From a virus (Duplodnaviria; Caudoviricetes): a stretch of 64,000 nt of DNA. The translations under genes were made by a program, and so were the position numbers. A model generated the notes under the pieces. It was not told the origin of the DNA. It searched no databases and was given only the letters and a program-made list of their open reading frames with translations. The stretch lies in IMG/VR virus record IMGVR_UViG_3300025875_000014, positions 3,840-67,839 of that record, one strand, 5' to 3'. Positions 2,889-63,383 of this stretch are shown piece after piece; the first letter of the stretch is position 1, and the number at the start of each line of letters is the position of its first letter.

Positions 2889-3937
2889 CTCGGAACCTTC
2901 CCGCCGAAGTACCCGGCGATCGTCTTCTCGGCAGGCTTCCCCTGCCACGAGAACGACGTGTCCGCCGCCCCACCATCCGTGGTCGCATTCATCGTGCGGT
3001 AAAGCATTACACCGTCAACCTCAGACCATCCTTCCACCGTGTGCAGCAGAGCATGAAACCACCGCTCCTGCACCTTCAGATCCACCTTCGCCGCCGCAAC
3101 CTCAGCCGGCGTCTTAGCGAACCGGTCATCCCACGCAATCGACCGCAACCCCGTCTCAGCCAGCACGATCCGCTTCCCGTACCGCTTCTTCGCCGACTTG
3201 AACTCGCCATGATCCTGCGCAAGTTTCCGCTTCAAGTCCCCGTAGGTCGCGCCCTCCTTCGGCACACGCGGATACCAAGTCGCCGAGATGTAGTCGAGCT
3301 TCTTGACCCACTTCGGATCCAGCAGCAGCAACTCGTCCCCCGTGTGCGCGGCGTACGTCAACTTCATCCGCCGCCCAGGGTCAGCCGCACGCAGAGCCGC
3401 GATCGTCTTCAGCCACCGCGCCGTGTTGCCCTTCGCCGTCATCCCCTTCTGCTCGATACCGATGATCAGCGTGTCCGCACCCTCATCGAGACCGATCCCC
3501 TGGTACTTCAGCAGCCACTTCGTCCACTCGCGGAACTCCACATCCGACCCGGGAATCTTCGCCCGCCACGAATGATCGACCAACTCCAGATGCGGCGCGA
3601 TCACCACACCCAAGCCGCACGCTCGAGCGTTGCGGATCGCCTGACGGAACTGCACATCCGTCGCCGTCGGCTCCACGTTCTTCTTCGCCTTCCGCTTCGT
3701 GATCACCCGCGACGTCGGCGTGTCCTGGATGAGGACCGGGTTCAGCGTGACGTGGTTTAAGCCCGTCGTCTTCAGGTCGCAGTAGACGGCCTTCACGCTG
3801 GCCGAGTCGAGCTGCTGGCCCGGCATCGCCTGGATGTTCGCCGACTGCATGTGGTTGCCCTTCACGTCCGCGTGAGCAGGCACGGCGACAGCAGCGAGGA
3901 CGAGGCCAGCAGCGAGGGCCGGGAGGATGCGCTTCAC
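2885..3937 (-). CDS. secreted glycoside hydrolase, GH113/GTA TIM-barrel-like (beta-mannanase-like)
   Basis: Sec signal MKRILPALAAGLVLAAVAVPAHA; LIIGIE (acid/base Glu), LTYAA, ISATWYP, VLAETGLRS (nucleophile Glu), FSWQGKPAE. Confidence 0.75.
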   Translation of the reverse strand: MKRILPALAAGLVLAAVAVPAHADVKGNHMQSANIQAMPGQQLDSASVKAVYCDLKTTGLNHVTLNPVLIQDTPTSRVITKRKAKKNVEPTATDVQFRQAIRNARACGLGVVIAPHLELVDHSWRAKIPGSDVEFREWTKWLLKYQGIGLDEGADTLIIGIEQKGMTAKGNTARWLKTIAALRAADPGRRMKLTYAAHTGDELLLLDPKWVKKLDYISATWYPRVPKEGATYGDLKRKLAQDHGEFKSAKKRYGKRIVLAETGLRSIAWDDRFAKTPAEVAAAKVDLKVQERWFHALLHTVEGWSEVDGVMLYRTMNATTDGGAADTSFSWQGKPAEKTIAGYFGGKVPR

Positions 3938-4401
3938 GAACGGACCATCCCTTGCCGAGATGCCATCTTGGCGTATCGGTCGTAGATGACGATGGAACCC
4001 GCTACGGCGACGTTCATCGACTGCGGCGCAGGGGTAGGAATCTGCACAAGGTGATGACAGCGGTCAGTCACTGCGGGCGGCAGGCCGTGGTCCTCAGCGC
4101 CGAGCAGGTAGATTCCGCGCTCCGGGTGCGTGAAGTCGTTTAGCATCCGCGCTCGCGGGTCCAGTTCGACGCCGATGAGTGGAGCCGAGAAGGGCAAGTG
4201 CTTGATCAGATCCGAGAGGTCTTCGAAGTGGAACAGCGGCTTGTGCTGCGGGGTGTTCATCGTGTCCGCCGCACGGCGCTGATAACGCAAGCCGACCGTG
4301 AAGACGAACGCTGCTCCGTAGAGGTTTGCCGTTCGGTAGAGGCTGCCGACATTTACCTCGGTCTTCGGGTGGTAGACGCCGATGGCGAAGTACCCCCTCA
4401 C
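3934..4401 (-). CDS. SpoU/TrmH-family (SPOUT) RNA methyltransferase
   Basis: NVGSLYRTA, LLGAEDHGL and IP...SMNVAVAGSIVIYD SPOUT motifs. Confidence 0.9.
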   Translation of the reverse strand: MRGYFAIGVYHPKTEVNVGSLYRTANLYGAAFVFTVGLRYQRRAADTMNTPQHKPLFHFEDLSDLIKHLPFSAPLIGVELDPRARMLNDFTHPERGIYLLGAEDHGLPPAVTDRCHHLVQIPTPAPQSMNVAVAGSIVIYDRYAKMASRQGMVRS

Positions 4402-48121: not shown

Positions 48122-50143
48122 GTGTTGGACGTCCGCGTTTTGTACGGAAATTGTTACGGCGGTTACTCGCTCCACGACGACGACCGCAAGGTCAACGGCA
48201 AGGACTACGCCCAGCGCGTCCCCCTACTCGTCAACCTGATCGTCAACTCTGGTGCGCACGTCTTCCTCGCGGTTGAGATCCACGAAGAGACCAGCTCGTC
48301 GTTCGGTGCCGCTGGCAGTGGGCACAAGTACCTGCTGAACGCGCTCAAGGCTGTCGATCCGGACTGGGCGCTACTTGAGGGGCGTGCGGGCAACCACTGC
48401 TACTACAAGCCGAGTCGTCTCGACGCGATCAGCGCGACGAACAAGAATATGCCCGGCTCAAGGTCCATGACGGACTTTGTGCTGCAGGACTCGGCTACCG
48501 GCTACCAGTGGCACAACGTCCTCGCGCACTTCCGCGCCGACGACAAGGACTACTACACCCCGAAGACGCACCAGAAGCGCAAGGGCAAGGAACGCACCAA
48601 GGAGCGCCGCCAGCAGGCTGAGTTCGTGGTCAAGTACACGGCGAACCTGCAGCGGGCGATCATCGCTGGTGACTTCAACTCGTCGACCGATGCGTCTGGG
48701 TATCCTCGCGCGATCTTCAAGGCGGCCGGTTTCCAGGGTCTTCGTGCTCGATCGACAACGCCAGTGGTGAACAAGGACCGGTCGACGCGTTCCACGAACT
48801 CGAAGGCGAAGTTCTGGATCGAGGACATCGAGACGCGCAAGACGCAGACGGTGTCGAACGCGGCGCTGATCCTGACGAACGGCGCATCGGACCACAACGG
48901 TTGGCTTGTTGCGACGATCACGTGGTCGGACGCTGGCGTTGCTGCGGTGCAGGCGGGGCTGCGGCCTGTCACGTCGTCGCTGGCGGCGACGTACGCGGGT
49001 CTACCGTGGACTGCTCGGGTGCGGAACCCCGACCTGTCGCTGGGTGTACCGCTGTCGTTCACGCGAGCTGAGCTGGTCGAAAACTACTGCGCGCCGAGTA
49101 TGTTGACGCTCACCGGTCGCACGTCTGATCTTGAGGCGGGCGCGAACATCGGCACGGGCGTGCTGATGACGGACGATCAGGGTGGCGTGCGCTGCTCGGG
49201 TCCGCTCGTCAACTTTGTGCGGCGTGGCAACAAGACGATGACGCTGGTCTACCGCAGCGATGCTGTGGAGGCTGCCGGTCGGATTGTGTGGCCGTCGCCG
49301 CTGGGTGCGTGGTCGAAGGCGGGCCAGGTTGCGGCGTACCACGTCGTGTCGGGCACGGCGGAGACGCGGCTACTCACGTACCTGTCGCTACACCTGGGCC
49401 CGAGTGCGCGGGTCGAACGGCGCTTGTCGGCCCTGCGGCTGCCTCTCACCAAGGAGCGCGGGCCGACGGCGGTGACGTCGGCTCGGTTCGACATCCTCGG
49501 TGAACTTATGGGCGTCCTCGCAGAACTGGCTGGTCTGCACTTCGGGATTCGGCAGGCGTACGACGGGATGACGCCGTATCGCGAGTTCTACCTAGACGAT
49601 GCTCCGGACTTGTCGGAGTGGGCCCGTTTCGGAACGCCCGAGTCGGGTGGCCCGTACATGCTCAGCAGCGACTGGTCTTACTCGGGCGGGCTGGGTGCGA
49701 CGACGATCCTTGGCGCGGCTGGTGGCGAGGGGTCTGACCGGATCCTCAACGCTGTCACCGATACCGATACGGAGGCCCTGTGGCATCGCCGGGTCGAGTA
49801 CTTCCTTGACCAGCGCAGTCAGACCGACCCCACCGAGATAGCTGAGGGTCTGGCGAAGGCGCTGCTCGACAAGGCCGGCGCGTCTGACGTGTCCGTGCCG
49901 CTGGGCAGCGTTCCCGGTATCGGCACGACCATCCCGATCGGCGCTCGAGCGTCTGCGGTCCTCGATGGGCAGTTGGTCACGGACCGGATCCGCCAGATCA
50001 CTACGGTGCTGTCGTCGGAGAACGGCGCAGTTCCTACGCAGGTCGATGCCGTCCTCGGTTCCCCCGATGCAGGCGTGAAGTCCCCGACGTGGCGTCAGCT
50101 TCAGCAGATGCTGCGCCGCATTAGGGAACTGGAGCGCCGCTAA
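48122..50143 (+). CDS. EEP (endo/exonuclease/phosphatase) domain fused to Gp37-like baseplate/minor tail protein
   Basis: GGAGG RBS; N-terminal LYGN, AVE, AHF, IAGDFNS, SDH; C-terminal region with GGEGSDR, RVEYFLDQR typical of ReqiPepy6 Gp37-like proteins. Confidence 0.8.
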   Translation: MLDVRVLYGNCYGGYSLHDDDRKVNGKDYAQRVPLLVNLIVNSGAHVFLAVEIHEETSSSFGAAGSGHKYLLNALKAVDPDWALLEGRAGNHCYYKPSRLDAISATNKNMPGSRSMTDFVLQDSATGYQWHNVLAHFRADDKDYYTPKTHQKRKGKERTKERRQQAEFVVKYTANLQRAIIAGDFNSSTDASGYPRAIFKAAGFQGLRARSTTPVVNKDRSTRSTNSKAKFWIEDIETRKTQTVSNAALILTNGASDHNGWLVATITWSDAGVAAVQAGLRPVTSSLAATYAGLPWTARVRNPDLSLGVPLSFTRAELVENYCAPSMLTLTGRTSDLEAGANIGTGVLMTDDQGGVRCSGPLVNFVRRGNKTMTLVYRSDAVEAAGRIVWPSPLGAWSKAGQVAAYHVVSGTAETRLLTYLSLHLGPSARVERRLSALRLPLTKERGPTAVTSARFDILGELMGVLAELAGLHFGIRQAYDGMTPYREFYLDDAPDLSEWARFGTPESGGPYMLSSDWSYSGGLGATTILGAAGGEGSDRILNAVTDTDTEALWHRRVEYFLDQRSQTDPTEIAEGLAKALLDKAGASDVSVPLGSVPGIGTTIPIGARASAVLDGQLVTDRIRQITTVLSSENGAVPTQVDAVLGSPDAGVKSPTWRQLQQMLRRIRELERR

Positions 50144-58413: not shown

Positions 58414-58827
58414 GTGGACGTCACCGCAATCCTGCTCGTCATACTCGGGATCCCCAGCACCGGAGGTCTGTTTGTTGCAGCCAGAGCGGCTATCCGTTGG
58501 CTCAGCAAGGGCCGCAAGGGCCGACGGGCTGAGGTTGAGTCGAGGCGCATCCACGACGACGTAGCCGCAGCCAATGCGAGCGTGCTTGTTGTCGCTCAGT
58601 CGCAGCAGCAGCTCGTCGCCGACAACGCTCGCCTTCGGGTCCAGCTAGCCGAGTCCGACGCCCGTCATGCGGCAGAGCGCGCGGAGTGGATGGCCGACAA
58701 GGCTCAGATGCGCGCCGAGATCGACGACATGGAGATCCGCCTGCGCACGGCGATGGACCGCCTCAACGAGGCCCTCGCCGAAGTCCACGAATGGCGACGC
58801 AAGCACGGATCGGACACCGCAACGTGA
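58414..58827 (+). CDS. membrane-anchored coiled-coil protein
   Basis: N-terminal TM then heptad-rich helix; common in actinophage lysis regions. Confidence 0.65.
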   Translation: MDVTAILLVILGIPSTGGLFVAARAAIRWLSKGRKGRRAEVESRRIHDDVAAANASVLVVAQSQQQLVADNARLRVQLAESDARHAAERAEWMADKAQMRAEIDDMEIRLRTAMDRLNEALAEVHEWRRKHGSDTAT

Positions 58828-59165
58828 GTGCTCGTACATGGCAGGTGTGGGCTCACGTCCAGGAGTGGATCGACGGCGACACCTGGAAGGGCTACGTCGA
58901 CCTCGGCTGCCACGTGTACCTAGGTACCAGCGACAGGCCCATCCGCTTCCGGTGCAGCCTGATCAACGCACCAGAGAAGAGCGCGGGCGCGGCGGGTGCA
59001 GAGTCGACTGCCTACGCCCGTTCACTGGTACCGCCCGGTGACTACCCGGCCACATCTACGGGGCTCGATAACTACGGTAGGCCGCTCGTGGACCTGCATC
59101 TACCCGACGGGCGCTTGTTCAGCCGCGCGATGCTAGACGCTGGATTTGCAGTCCTTTACCGCTAG
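58824..59165 (+). CDS. thermonuclease (SNase)-like protein
   Basis: WIDGDT, INAPE, DNYGRPL, MLDAGFA. Confidence 0.8.
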   Translation: MSARTWQVWAHVQEWIDGDTWKGYVDLGCHVYLGTSDRPIRFRCSLINAPEKSAGAAGAESTAYARSLVPPGDYPATSTGLDNYGRPLVDLHLPDGRLFSRAMLDAGFAVLYR

Positions 59166-59172
59166 GAGCACA

Positions 59173-59985
59173 GTGCCTCAGTACCCGCTAGGTCGCCTGA
59201 AGCAGCACGATGAGCGCTCTCGTGCGTTCGCCTACCGTGCCGCCGCACCCGCCGTCCTCAGGTCGGTCCGCCACACGTCGCACATCGGCATCCTCGACCA
59301 AGGGGACGTCGGCTCCTGCACCGGTAACGCCACCGTCGGAGCGCTCGGCTACGACCCCTACTTCTCAACCGTCAACGGCACCTCGCTGGACGAAGACCTC
59401 GCCGTCAAGGTCTACAGCCTCGCCACGACACTCGACCCGTTCACCGGCACCTACCTACCGGACGACACCGGATCGTCAGGACTGGCAGCAGCGAAGGCAG
59501 CGCAACAGCTCGGGCTCATCTCTGGATATCAGCACGCGTTCAACCTTGCCGCTGCACTTACCGCGCTACAGGCTGGGCCAGTCATCACCGGAATCACTTG
59601 GTACGAGTCCTTCTTCACGCCCAGTAGCAGCGGACTCGTCAATATCCAGACCGGCGACAAGCCAGCAGGCGGACACGAGGTCTGCGTAGACGGCTACGAC
59701 GACGCCGAGCAGCTCGTGTGGTTCCGCAATTCGTGGTCGGACTCGTGGGGTGTCGGTGGCCGGTTCTGCATGCCCGTAACGACGTGGGCGCAACTCCTGT
59801 CCGACGACGGCGACGCGACGATCCTGACGCCGCTCACGCTGCCCGCGCCCGTCCCCAACATCACCCCCGACGCCATCCTCATTCGAGCGATGGACCCGTG
59901 GGCGTCAGGTACCTTCGCCACCTACACGAAAGCAGGCAAGGCCGCATCCGCCTTCCGTACGTGGCGCGCAAGTAAGGGGATCTAG
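59173..59985 (+). CDS. papain-like (C1A) cysteine peptidase
   Basis: DQGDVGSCTG (Gln, Cys), GGHEV (His), FRNSWSDSWG (Asn). Confidence 0.88.
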   Translation: MPQYPLGRLKQHDERSRAFAYRAAAPAVLRSVRHTSHIGILDQGDVGSCTGNATVGALGYDPYFSTVNGTSLDEDLAVKVYSLATTLDPFTGTYLPDDTGSSGLAAAKAAQQLGLISGYQHAFNLAAALTALQAGPVITGITWYESFFTPSSSGLVNIQTGDKPAGGHEVCVDGYDDAEQLVWFRNSWSDSWGVGGRFCMPVTTWAQLLSDDGDATILTPLTLPAPVPNITPDAILIRAMDPWASGTFATYTKAGKAASAFRTWRASKGI

Positions 59986-60002: not shown

Positions 60003-60290
60003 CTACTCCCCCTGCCCTTCCTTGAGTCGCCGCAACTCGGCCTCAGCCGCTAGTGCCCGGGCATCCTCGGCGTCGTTGACGATCTTGTACGCGACGCACT
60101 GACCAAACGCGTCGTAGACACGCTCAAGGTGATGCGGCTCTTTGAACGCAAATCGGCGGACGCTCCAGCCGAGCCCTGACGTCTTCTCGCTCATCGTCCC
60201 TCCAACTGCTCGGTGTAGGTCCACCAGAAAGATCATGTCGGCATCAGCCTCCCAGAGGTGGGATTCCTCAAGCGATTCCGCTGGAGTCAC
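60003..60290 (-). CDS. hypothetical protein
   Basis: coupled reverse cassette. Confidence 0.55.
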   Translation of the reverse strand: MTPAESLEESHLWEADADMIFLVDLHRAVGGTMSEKTSGLGWSVRRFAFKEPHHLERVYDAFGQCVAYKIVNDAEDARALAAEAELRRLKEGQGE

Positions 60291-60499
60291 TTGTTCGCCA
60301 TCCAGTCTTCGTAATCTTCGTAGTCTGACTCATTCAACGTCCCCAGACCGAGTGCACGACGTGTCCTGCAGGGCCAACAGGGGTCCGACTCTCCAAGGAC
60401 GTAGCACTCCGGCTTGAAGTTCATGTCAGCGCACTTGCGGCAGTCTGGTATCCCCCTGTCCGCTTCTTGCTTCCAGATCTGACTCGTGTAGTCAGTCAC
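60287..60499 (-). CDS. Cys-rich hypothetical protein
   Basis: CRKC...C...CWPC. Confidence 0.6.
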   Translation of the reverse strand: MTDYTSQIWKQEADRGIPDCRKCADMNFKPECYVLGESDPCWPCRTRRALGLGTLNESDYEDYEDWMANK

Positions 60500-60710
60500 G
60501 TCGCGAGTTCCTCTCCATCCACTTTGGCTTATCCCAGGGCCGATCTGGCATCGCTATGGCACCACAGGCGCACCTGACCACCTGCAAGTGCAGCCCGAGC
60601 CAACCCTCTGACTGCGCGCGGCACCGGTGCAGGTAAAATGGGCGTGGTGCATCCATCCAAGACACGCCGTCTTTGTGAACAAGCTCAAGGGTTTCTTGCC
60701 AGTTGCTCAT
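60492..60710 (-). CDS. hypothetical protein
   Basis: HRC...RCACGA...W.ERN motif. Confidence 0.6.
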   Translation of the reverse strand: MSNWQETLELVHKDGVSWMDAPRPFYLHRCRAQSEGWLGLHLQVVRCACGAIAMPDRPWDKPKWMERNSRRD

Positions 60711-60844
60711 CGGCTGTACCTCTCTAGGAACTTTCTAACCGCCTCACTGACGGTCTCGCCCTTCTCGTCGGCCTTCAGCAGCGCCGCATCCCACACTGCG
60801 TCACCGACGCGGACCACCCGGTTCTTCATCGGCTCTCGGGGCAT
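60707..60844 (-). CDS. ribbon-helix-helix protein
   Basis: MPREPMKNRVVRVGDAVWDAALLKADEKGETVSEAVRKFLERY; TACTCT-N6-ATG; not in ORF track. Confidence 0.8.
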   Translation of the reverse strand: MPREPMKNRVVRVGDAVWDAALLKADEKGETVSEAVRKFLERYSR

Positions 60845-60899: not shown

Positions 60900-62291
60900 G
60901 TGGTCATCCTCGCCGTACCCCGCACAGCCGGCGCGCCCTCAGGTCTGACGGGCGCACACATCACCGCTGCCCTCAAGGCCGCCGGTGCGGGCTCTGGGCT
61001 CGTCATGCCCGCCAGTCAGATCGCCGTCGCGTTCAACGATGCGATCAGCAAATATGGCGGCGGCCTGTTCACCACCATCAACTCCTACGCGGCGCTCGTC
61101 TCCGAGTGCATGATGGAGTCTGCCTACTTCCGCACCACCGCCGAGTACGCGACCACTGGCCCTTACCAGCCGTACAAGGGGCGCACGTTCATCCAGATCA
61201 CCTGGAAGGACAACTACGCCGCGTTCGGCAAATGGTGCTTGTCCGTCGGCCTCGTCACTGATGCGGACTACTTCGTGAAGAACCCGACCAAGCTCGCCGA
61301 CCTCAAGTGGGCTGCGATCGGCGGCGTCTGGTACTTCACCAAGGTCCTGAAGAAAGACAAGCAGGGCAACCTGCACCCGATCGTCTGGTGGGCCGACGAC
61401 CCGCTCGCCATCGGTCGCGCCGTCAACATGGGCAACCCGTACAGCACTGCCACGCCCAACGGTCAGAAGGCACGCGACGCCGCCTACGTTGCCGTCGTCA
61501 AAGCGCTCACCGCAACCCCACAGGAGCCAGACGTGTCAGTCGCTTTCCGTGGTGGCCGCACCTGTTCGTGCGTCGCCACCAGCCTCCCCCTCGTCGAGAG
61601 GGACATGATCAGACGAGGCTTGATCAAGTACAACATCGACGTCTACCAACTCGGCTACCGCAACGACGTCAGCGCCTCTGCCGGCACGCATGCGGGTGGA
61701 GGGAACACCGACGTCGCCCAGTTCTCCGACGCGCAGATCGACGTGTGGCGGCTCTGGGGCTGGACTATCCAGCACCGCACCAAAGCCCAGGGGTTCGACA
61801 TGGACCACGGGCACGGCTGGCCGCTCGGCTGCGACCACCTGTCCGCTGGTGGTCGTGCGCAGGCCACGCAGTGGGCGAACCGTCAGAACGGACTCGCCAG
61901 CAAGGGACGCGTCGAAGGCCGCTGGCCGATCGACGACTGGAAGACCGCCATGAAGAAGCGGCAGGCGGAACAGCAGGCACGCGACGACGCGGCAGCCGAA
62001 GCCGAACGACAGAAGGAGCTTGAGTTGCCCACGACCAAAGAGGTTGGCGACTACCTCGCCACGAACGACAAGTTCCTCGACGCGATCGCCAAGAAGGTCG
62101 CCGAGGCAGTGTGGAACGCCGACGTCATCCCGAACGCTGGCGTCCTTACGTCGAACGTCGACAACGTGAACGTCTCCCCGAAGACGGCACTGACGCAGAT
62201 CGGCAAGAAGATCAACGACGCGAACGCCGACCTGGACGCTCTGTCCGCCCGGTTTCCCAATCCCAGCCCCGAGCCCCCTCCCGCCGCTTGA
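60900..62291 (+). CDS. endolysin: GH19-like glycosidase + M15-like Zn peptidase + C-terminal domain
   Basis: ECMMES...EY, YKGRTFIQITWKDNY (GH19); SASAGTHAGGGNTD...H (M15-like). Confidence 0.85.
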   Translation: MVILAVPRTAGAPSGLTGAHITAALKAAGAGSGLVMPASQIAVAFNDAISKYGGGLFTTINSYAALVSECMMESAYFRTTAEYATTGPYQPYKGRTFIQITWKDNYAAFGKWCLSVGLVTDADYFVKNPTKLADLKWAAIGGVWYFTKVLKKDKQGNLHPIVWWADDPLAIGRAVNMGNPYSTATPNGQKARDAAYVAVVKALTATPQEPDVSVAFRGGRTCSCVATSLPLVERDMIRRGLIKYNIDVYQLGYRNDVSASAGTHAGGGNTDVAQFSDAQIDVWRLWGWTIQHRTKAQGFDMDHGHGWPLGCDHLSAGGRAQATQWANRQNGLASKGRVEGRWPIDDWKTAMKKRQAEQQARDDAAAEAERQKELELPTTKEVGDYLATNDKFLDAIAKKVAEAVWNADVIPNAGVLTSNVDNVNVSPKTALTQIGKKINDANADLDALSARFPNPSPEPPPAA

Positions 62292-62295
62292 GCCG

Positions 62296-63024
62296 CTGAC
62301 GTTCAGTGCGTTCCAGTTCAACGCGCGCTGGCCGGGGTTCTCGAGCACACCCGCGTCCCCGTCGTGGGCGGTCCGTATGCCGATGCTGGTCGCTCGGGCG
62401 AAGGCATCCAAGGCGTCGGTCCTGATCGTGCAGGAGTTGGGCGCAGACCAGGCGCCCGGCTTCTTCGCCGCGATGGGCTCCGACTGGCACTACGACCGAG
62501 CCGGTCTGAACGTCGTCGGCTGGGACACGCGGCAGTGGACGTGGCAGGCGAGCAACCCGCTGGACTTGTCCTCGTTCGGGCAGATGCAGCGGACCCTGAT
62601 CGCGGTGACCTTACAAGAGTTAGAAGGGTTTAGCGGATCCGACAAAAACGGGTCAAGACTCGGCCGGTTCGCCAGCACCCACCTTGCTGCAGCAGCCTCT
62701 GACCTGACGGAAGCCAGAGCCATCGTGGCAAGGGCTACGCAAGCCGCTGAGGTCGCAGGAGCACTCGCCCTAGCTCCAGTACCCACCCTGCTCGGCGCCG
62801 ACTGGAACAGCCGCGCAGCTACCGACAGTGGACCCTCAGCCCCCCGCACCATCCTCGGTGCGCTCGGCTGGACGTTCGACTCAACCCCGCTCGCCGCCGA
62901 TGCCAAGAAGGGCATCGACGGGACCGCCGCCAACTACGGCATGGGCATCACCAGCAGCCAGGTCGTCGACCTCGGCACAGCATCCGACCACGACGGCCGC
63001 CTGGTCGTCGCCACCACCCAGTAG
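62296..63024 (+). CDS. EEP-superfamily phosphodiesterase in the lysis cassette
   Basis: TFSAFQFNAR...W..R...IVQEL, STH, GADWNS, IDG, SDH; first ATG (62377) lies inside the domain. Confidence 0.75.
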   Translation: MTFSAFQFNARWPGFSSTPASPSWAVRMPMLVARAKASKASVLIVQELGADQAPGFFAAMGSDWHYDRAGLNVVGWDTRQWTWQASNPLDLSSFGQMQRTLIAVTLQELEGFSGSDKNGSRLGRFASTHLAAAASDLTEARAIVARATQAAEVAGALALAPVPTLLGADWNSRAATDSGPSAPRTILGALGWTFDSTPLAADAKKGIDGTAANYGMGITSSQVVDLGTASDHDGRLVVATTQ

Positions 63025-63031
63025 GAGCACC

Positions 63032-63283
63032 ATGTCCGACCCCACCACGTACCCCGAGCCCGTCTCGACCGACCCCACGCGAGTCAGTCCTAAGGTGGTG
63101 ATCAGCACCGTGCTCGCGCTGATCGTCCCCGGCGTCATCGCTGGCCTGTCCTACATCCAGGACAACTTCGCCGTCCTCGGGATCGATAACCCGATCCTCG
63201 GTACCGCTGTGCTGGCTCTGATCCCCGGCCTGCTCGTCTTCTTCGGCGGCTACCTCAAGCGGGACCCCGCCCGCAACGGCTAA
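63032..63283 (+). CDS. holin
   Basis: AGGAG RBS; VSPKV, two TMs, GYLKRDP C-terminus; follows endolysin. Confidence 0.8.
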   Translation: MSDPTTYPEPVSTDPTRVSPKVVISTVLALIVPGVIAGLSYIQDNFAVLGIDNPILGTAVLALIPGLLVFFGGYLKRDPARNG

Positions 63284-63383
63284 CCTCCGACACCCCGCCT
63301 GTCGCTCATCCCGGCAGGAGGGGTCACACTTCCGCCCCAACTCTCGCCGCGATCCGGCTGAGGGTTGGGGCGGTTTCGTACGT

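Follow-up and report, generated by a model that had tools for sequence, protein, structure and literature searches.

An EEP-fold domain, a putative phosphoesterase, in the +1 frame behind a phage endolysin, and a candidate UUU_CCC frameshift site that would join the two

Introduction

UUU_Ynn is an especially +1-prone site in bacteria, and UUU-based cases of +1 frameshifting include YopN-TyeA, the integrative and conjugative element (ICE) activator FseA, and influenza PA-X, in which the site reads UCC_UUU_CGU (PMC5009743). Here we analyse a 64,000-nucleotide stretch of a Caudoviricetes virus (IMG/VR record IMGVR_UViG_3300025875_000014, positions 3,840 to 67,839; hereafter the window), in which an endolysin gene is followed, in the +1 frame, by an EEP-fold domain that lacks its own start codon. 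We propose that a fraction of ribosomes slips by +1 at UUU_CCC near the end of the endolysin gene, which would produce an endolysin-EEP fusion. Recoding of the proposed kind, +1 slippage at UUU_Y, is a known class.

In Yersinia YopN-TyeA, as proposed here, ribosomes slip by +1 on a UUU that precedes a pyrimidine, close to the 3' end of a gene, which results in a fusion with the product of the adjacent +1 frame (PMC5009743), and neither system has a known strong stimulator. The two differ in that tyeA has its own start and the fusion is an extra product, whereas the EEP frame of the window has no start; moreover, YopN-TyeA belongs to type III secretion and the window locus to lysis, and the gene families are unlike. 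Influenza A PA-X and the rhizobial ICE activator FseA likewise share with our proposal a shift from UUU to UUC that yields a trans-frame C-terminal extension (PMC5009743). For these two, a rare A-site codon (CGU) or a conserved nascent WG motif has been implicated, whereas the A-site codon in the window is the common CCC.

Among phages, Listeria phage PSA reportedly uses +1 frameshifts in capsid and tail genes, with CCC_UGA as the slip site, and lambda G/GT is said to use a -1 frameshift at G_GGA_AAG. Both resemble the system proposed here in making a short and a C-terminally extended product at a ratio set by recoding; they are, however, structural genes with other slip sites, whereas the gene in the window encodes an endolysin. 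LysB is an accessory enzyme that acts on a non-peptidoglycan bond of the envelope, a serine esterase with a fold other than EEP. Mycobacteriophage Ms6 LysA exists as two nested isoforms owing to an in-frame internal start (PMC3111421), and thus offers, as we propose here, two endolysin isoforms from one lysis locus, although those of the window would arise by frameshift and not from an internal start. Our literature search found no published recoding in an endolysin gene or in any phage lysis gene, no second enzyme appended to an endolysin by +1 slippage, and no EEP module in endolysins.

Results

The endolysin is encoded on the plus strand at positions 60900-62291 (463 amino acids, the predicted short isoform) and ends with a TGA at 62289-62291. 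The 3' end of its frame reads GCC CGG TTT CCC AAT CCC AGC CCC GAG CCC CCT CCC GCC GCT TGA, which agrees from CCC GAG onwards with what an earlier sequence-only reading of this DNA had given. In the +1 frame, that is, at positions equal to 1 modulo 3, a TGA at 62191-62193 is followed by an open frame that runs from 62194 to a stop at 63022-63024; its translation reads PPGFPIPAPSPLPPLEPLTFSAFQFNARWPGFSSTPASPSWAVRMPML... and includes PPGFPIPAPSPLPPLEPLTFSAFQFNARWPGF. The sequence-only reading had also stated that this frame has no ATG, GTG or TTG before position 62377 and that the first strand of an EEP domain lies 27 codons 5' of the ATG found there, and both statements hold. None of the three start codons occurs among the 42 open codons that precede the codon for the conserved first-strand Asn (AAC, 62320-62322), an EEP metal-binding position. 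The strand itself begins with the Leu at 62296, and the first canonical start in the frame, the ATG at 62377-62379, lies 19 codons 3' of the Asn and is the start that gene callers take, giving a truncated product of 215 amino acids.

When TTTC at the proposed slip site (UUU_CCC, 62253-62258) is read as a single Phe, an uninterrupted product of 707 amino acids results, in which the +1-frame extension (62254-63024, 256 codons from TTC to the stop) supplies a Pro-rich linker and a complete EEP-fold domain. The C-rich overlap at 62259-62288 is read in both frames, in frame 0 as the tail of the short form and in the +1 frame as the linker IPAPSPLPPL. The products predicted from the sequence are hence the 463-residue endolysin and a 707-residue endolysin-EEP fusion. 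A slip at UUU_CCC is predicted to give the tryptic junction peptide FPIPAPSPLPPLEPLTFSAFQFNAR, a slip at the stop would give FPNPSPEPPPAAEPLTF..., and the predicted terminal peptide of the short form is FPNPSPEPPPAA.

The identity of the downstream domain was established through its structure. The EEP protein had no useful match in Pfam, PHROGs, NCBIfam or PDB sequences, megablast and tblastn against deposited phages returned no relative of the EEP gene, 185k species genomes scanned with a protein pattern yielded none, and scans of viral and metagenome contigs for the gene returned solely the contig already known. Against Pfam PF03372 the window protein had no match at the gathering score, and the relative P0019 reached 23.6 bits against a cutoff of 24.5. 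An AlphaFold2 (AF2) model of the domain with ten homologues, on the other hand, was confident (predicted local distance difference test, pLDDT, 89; predicted TM-score, pTM, 0.90) and shows the four-layer alpha/beta sandwich of the EEP superfamily. Foldseek against the PDB returned EEP proteins (E 6.4e-14; TM 0.79 to 3mpr), VIA-align aligned model residues 1/2-244 over 219-222 residues (Z 26.5, root-mean-square deviation 2.2-2.3), and the ESM Atlas neighbours were EEP clusters without exception. The EEP assignment of the sequence-only reading, which had rested on motifs, is thereby confirmed, and the domain is a divergent subfamily that is detected only via structure or profile. Its structural neighbours at similar Z include nucleases, Tdp2, nocturnin and sphingomyelinases and so give no guidance on its substrate.

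In the alignment of the family (A1), the catalytic and metal-binding residues are those of the EEP superfamily: an Asn in strand 1, the Glu of a QE motif, a His, a D-x-N motif, an Asp and an SDH motif. E49, H131, D171, N173, D210, D233 and H234 are invariant and N11 nearly so, being absent solely from P0012, a truncated gene call. Strand 1 of the model comprises residues 4-11, including this Asn, and is encoded 5' of the ATG at 62377; the 215-residue product of the gene callers would therefore be missing both a catalytic residue and a core strand, one that the fold requires. Within the EEP gene, positions 62611-62660 are low in GC (about 45%, against 64% for the window) and hold a GGATCC site; the stretch corresponds to a nine-residue insertion, ELEGFSGSDKNGS, relative to all nine relatives, and forms a surface loop of low pLDDT.

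Homology searches found close EEP relatives with 61-78% amino-acid identity, and we compared ten loci from distinct SRA, ENA and JGI samples, namely the window and L001, L002, L004, L007, L008, L010, L011, L018 and L019. In all ten, the EEP frame is +1 relative to the endolysin, at a DNA identity of 51-90% over the EEP frame; the endolysin ahead of it shares the C-terminal domain of the window endolysin in each of the nine others, and the length of the C-rich overlap differs between loci by multiples of three (18-33 nt). Such a recurrence is far beyond chance. The 1-nt insertion or sequencing error that had been offered as an explanation is rejected by this result, since the offset is identical in ten diverged loci that come from different samples.

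Nine of the ten loci lack an ATG, GTG or TTG 5' of the Asn in the +1 frame, and in L002 there is no near-cognate codon either. The first canonical start beyond the Asn lies 12 to 36 codons downstream and is ATG, GTG or TTG depending on the locus, and no start codon stands at the position of the ATG at 62377 in L002, L004, L010 and L019. For the 22 codons around the Asn and 5' of the window ATG, the ratio of nonsynonymous to synonymous change (pN/pS) is 0.45 in the EEP frame, while the two remaining frames give 1.24 and 1.90; judged by these ratios, the codons ahead of the ATG are under purifying selection, and in the EEP frame only. The downstream frame thus overlaps the endolysin frame without an initiation codon of its own, in an arrangement that diverged relatives have kept, and frameshifting appears to be the sole route to the EEP domain. 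The public gene calls for close homologues, P0003-P0012, all start at an internal ATG or GTG and measure 189-206 amino acids; they leave out strand 1 together with the catalytic Asn, which is a systematic mis-annotation.

The candidate slip site, UUU_CCC at 62253-62258, encodes Phe-Pro in both frames (F452 P453 in frame 0; U UUC CCA in the +1 frame). TTT CCC is invariant in all ten loci and is the sole invariant block between the TTT and the frame-0 stop, and the synonymous sites of conserved residues beside it vary freely. TTT is, moreover, a disfavoured Phe codon in these genes, with 5 TTT versus 105 TTC away from the site (about 4.5%), and each full-length endolysin gene carries one TTT Phe codon, that of the slip site, against 10-15 TTC. 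What the overlap keeps against codon bias is a shift-prone UUU_Y. In seven of the ten loci, all of them among the nine other than the window, a +1-frame stop lies three codons 5' of the TTC, so that the frame change would have to fall within the 24-39 nt from the TTT to the frame-0 stop. That stop lies 7-12 codons 3' of the slip site; it is TGA, followed by G, A or C, or TAG, followed by T, and its position differs even between the close relatives L010 and L011.

The sequence-only reading had proposed a programmed +1 endolysin-EEP fusion by slippage within the C-rich run. The comparison of the ten loci supports the fusion and argues against the run as its site. The C-run varies from locus to locus in length (C3 to C6), in sequence and in frame position, while TTT CCC is invariant and TTT is rare, and UUU_CCC, which falls just outside the coordinates given in the sequence-only reading, is therefore the likelier site. 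It also coincides with a domain boundary, because in the AF2 model of the endolysin C-terminal domain (modest, at pLDDT 73) the last helix ends at R451, immediately before F452-P453. The motif GGTTTCCC occurs twice in the window, no more than expected by chance, so its count by itself is uninformative. From the pattern of conservation we infer ribosomal slippage: it is likely that the fusion arises from a programmed frameshift somewhere in the overlap, and a +1 shift at UUU_CCC is probably the one that does so.

Several observations weigh against a shift at UUU_CCC. RNAalifold around and after the slip site gave -6.2 kcal/mol with a positive covariation term and no conserved RNA structure, the z-scores of single-sequence folding were insignificant in five of six loci, no clear Shine-Dalgarno (SD)-like element was found near the site, and CCC, which would occupy the A site in frame 0, is in common use. 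As no stimulator was found in the form of a structure, an SD-like element or a rare A-site codon, the efficiency of slippage could be low. A near-cognate CTG or ATT is present between the stop and the Asn in eight of the ten loci, and weak reinitiation at such a codon is possible; the invariance of TTT CCC could in principle also stem from another nucleotide-level constraint. A small hairpin 5' of the TTT, free of covariation, is confined to those loci that have the KLDAL sequence, and the window encodes no phage tRNA such as a frameshift suppressor.

We then weighed other ways in which the EEP domain might be made. A programmed +1 shift might take place elsewhere in the overlap, either at a CCC_N of the C-run or through out-of-frame decoding in the A site at GCY_UGA. 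Yeast antizyme is decoded in this latter manner at the stop in GCG_UGA_C, and +1 shifts at CCC_UGA have reportedly been found in Listeria phage PSA. The overlap of every locus does contain CCC codons, and in eight of the ten it ends in GCC or GCT followed by the stop. However, the inconstancy of the run described above speaks against a shift in it, and the stop changes in identity, 3' base and position, as between L010 and L011, unlike the cassettes of stop-dependent shifts. A shift at either place would also leave the invariant rare TTT without explanation, and we consider it unlikely. The stop-dependent +1 type of prfB or antizyme does not fit, as the stop context varies and re-pairing in the +1 frame is impossible for the GCY or GTC ahead of the stop. 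Transcriptional slippage and DNA phase variation were rejected, the C-runs being short (3-6) and not conserved.

Alternatively, a separate EEP protein could be made after the endolysin stop by non-canonical initiation or by termination-reinitiation, at the CTG of 62296-62298 or a similar codon. There is a model for this among the relatives, since the standalone genes P0013 and P0017 begin at a GTG that shares bases with the upstream stop and lies 6-12 codons ahead of the Asn; the near-cognate codons just mentioned in eight loci would serve. The CTG that the sequence-only reading had put forward as an alternative start is nevertheless not conserved, its counterpart being CTC in L002, GTC in L007 and ATT in L018. 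Ahead of the Asn, L002 offers neither a canonical nor a near-cognate codon, and in L007 such codons are missing beyond the stop. In the window, the CTG lies in a C-rich tract and is not preceded by an SD-like sequence, and CTG is the commonest Leu codon in these genomes. Separate initiation gives no account of the invariance of TTT CCC either, and it seems improbable as the source of the EEP domain. It is very improbable, finally, that the EEP gene simply starts at an internal ATG or GTG to give a truncated protein, is a decaying remnant, or owes its offset to an assembly indel: every database gene call for the close homologues does start internally (189-215 amino acids), but that start varies in position and kind, purifying selection acts in the EEP frame on the codons upstream of it, the truncated form would lack the core strand and catalytic Asn, and the identical offset in ten independent assemblies excludes the indel.

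The wider family shows that the EEP domain also occurs in other arrangements. Among 1.8 billion representatives, a profile search detected 211 EEP relatives, many of which carry the domain as an in-frame C-terminal module, past a Pro-rich linker, on wall hydrolases of the Amidase_2 (P0014-16), GH25 (P0020, P0029 and P0040) or PG_binding_1 (P0018 and P0033) type. These fused modules share 38-46% identity with the window subfamily (profile E 1e-104 to 1e-27). They thus place the same EEP subfamily C-terminal to a wall hydrolase, as in the fusion proposed for the window, but are single open reading frames (ORFs), whereas the window group needs a frame change. Because the domain is found in frame on wall hydrolases, a fused endolysin-EEP protein is a natural architecture. 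Other relatives are standalone EEP genes in lysis cassettes, with a GTG start that overlaps the upstream stop (GTGA). The check on homologues that the sequence-only reading had called for, whether they are fused or keep the shift, thus gives a split answer: the ten close loci keep the +1 offset, and more distant relatives are fused in frame or GTGA-coupled. Occurrence in fused, coupled and frameshifted form fits a role of the EEP domain in lysis.

Two of the standalone arrangements look like split versions of the fused forms. In L012 (2677-3504 / 3501-4259) the upstream protein has collagen-like repeats and a D/P-rich, linker-like tail, and in L015 (2252-2932 / 2929-3669) it has a weak PG_binding_1 match. 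In the distant EEP relative P0030, the first ~30 residues are Arg-rich, like an out-of-frame translation, and the protein joins the EEP alignment at QELG; it may represent another frame disruption in a distant lineage.

A search with the endolysin C-terminal domain returned 11 homologues of 332-474 amino acids, among which there was no in-frame form of the window's endolysin type of about 700 residues. The domain (LDALIARFP plus a Pro/Ala tail; P0166-P0174) occurs on varied N-terminal catalytic domains, GH19-like, one JGI-named GH24 lysozyme and others, and FP is kept in all 17 endolysin C-termini seen. This helical domain behaves as a mobile module.

The window endolysin itself consists of a GH19-like catalytic domain (about residues 41-205), a conserved central domain and the helical C-terminal domain, which finishes in DALSARFP and is followed by the Pro-rich tail NPSPEPPPAA. 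Its N-terminal half matches phrog_317, endolysin (9.6e-30), and, among PDB sequences, the GH19-type 'Endolysin A' 9hqw (E 1.9e-15), and tblastn returned lysin A of mycobacteriophages and Gordonia phages at ~38% identity. Downstream of the EEP frame, positions 63032-63283 on the plus strand encode a small protein of 83 amino acids with hydrophobic stretches. It is holin-like by position and has no significant family match in Pfam or PHROGs; in L007 and L015, its positional counterpart matches PF16945 Phage_r1t_holin. With its peptidoglycan-hydrolase domain and an adjoining holin-like gene in the lysis cassette, the endolysin is of the modular lysin A type.

Past the holin-like gene, a GC-rich inverted repeat at 63332-63379, CCGCCCCAAC...GTTGGGGCGG, is followed by TTTCGT and is likely the terminator of the lysis operon; it was absent from the plus-strand output of a consensus scan. 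On the endolysin strand, some 0.9-2.2 kb upstream of the endolysin (58686-59985), lie an ORF resembling staphylococcal nuclease (PF00565, E 1.9e-4) and one for a papain-like peptidase (PF00112, E 1.3e-6; phrog_16701, 3.7e-46), which minus-strand ORFs at 60003-60844 separate from the endolysin.

The window holds a second, distant EEP paralogue at the N-terminus of a tail-hub-like protein (48122-50143). BLASTP aligns it with the lysis EEP along the entire domain at 23% identity (E 0.03), and the hhalign probability of a match to A1 is 89% (E 2.6e-6). By this match the phage has an EEP domain in the virion as well as in the lysis cassette, which hints that one kind of bond is cut by the two at entry and at exit.

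Discussion

We propose the following course of events for slippage at UUU_CCC. Most ribosomes would follow frame 0 to the TGA at 62289 and release the 463-residue endolysin. A fraction would slip by +1 at 62253-62258, the peptidyl-tRNA-Phe moving from UUU to the better-paired UUC, possibly with tRNA-Pro slipping in tandem from CCC to CCN (UUU_CCC to UUC_CCN). These ribosomes would go on to translate the Pro-rich linker and the EEP-fold domain, a putative metal-dependent phosphoesterase, and complete the 707-residue fusion. With the slip placed at the end of the last endolysin helix, both products would be cleanly bounded. The slip site lies close to the stop, and ribosome queuing during Pro-rich decoding or termination could drive the slip. 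During lysis, the EEP module may hydrolyse a phosphodiester of the host envelope, in the linkage or backbone of a wall polymer or in a lipid head group; the sequence-only reading had put forward, as a putative role, that of a LysB-like accessory for anionic wall polymers.

A broader reading can be advanced only tentatively. It holds that an unannotated UUU_CCC cassette, with a C-rich Pro tract and a stop 7-12 codons on, sets the ratio of two endolysin isoforms; that the EEP phosphodiesterase of the long isoform represents an undescribed class of lysis enzyme directed at a phosphodiester-linked component of the envelope; and that the tail-hub paralogue serves entry.

If slippage at UUU_CCC does take place, it would bring recoding to a phage lysis gene. 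It would also mean that gene callers systematically mis-annotate a second enzyme, the entries for close homologues all being truncated and devoid of the catalytic Asn. It would further point to a catalytic module as yet uncharacterised in endolysins, an EEP phosphoesterase that amidase, GH25 and PG-binding endolysins also carry in frame, and the fused, coupled and frameshifted forms provide a ready comparison on the question of why a phage should hold down the quantity of the long form. The recurrence of the module bears on endolysin engineering and on the barriers that the envelope presents, and suggests that, to lyse a high-GC Gram-positive host, some phages need to cleave a phosphodiester bond in addition to peptidoglycan.

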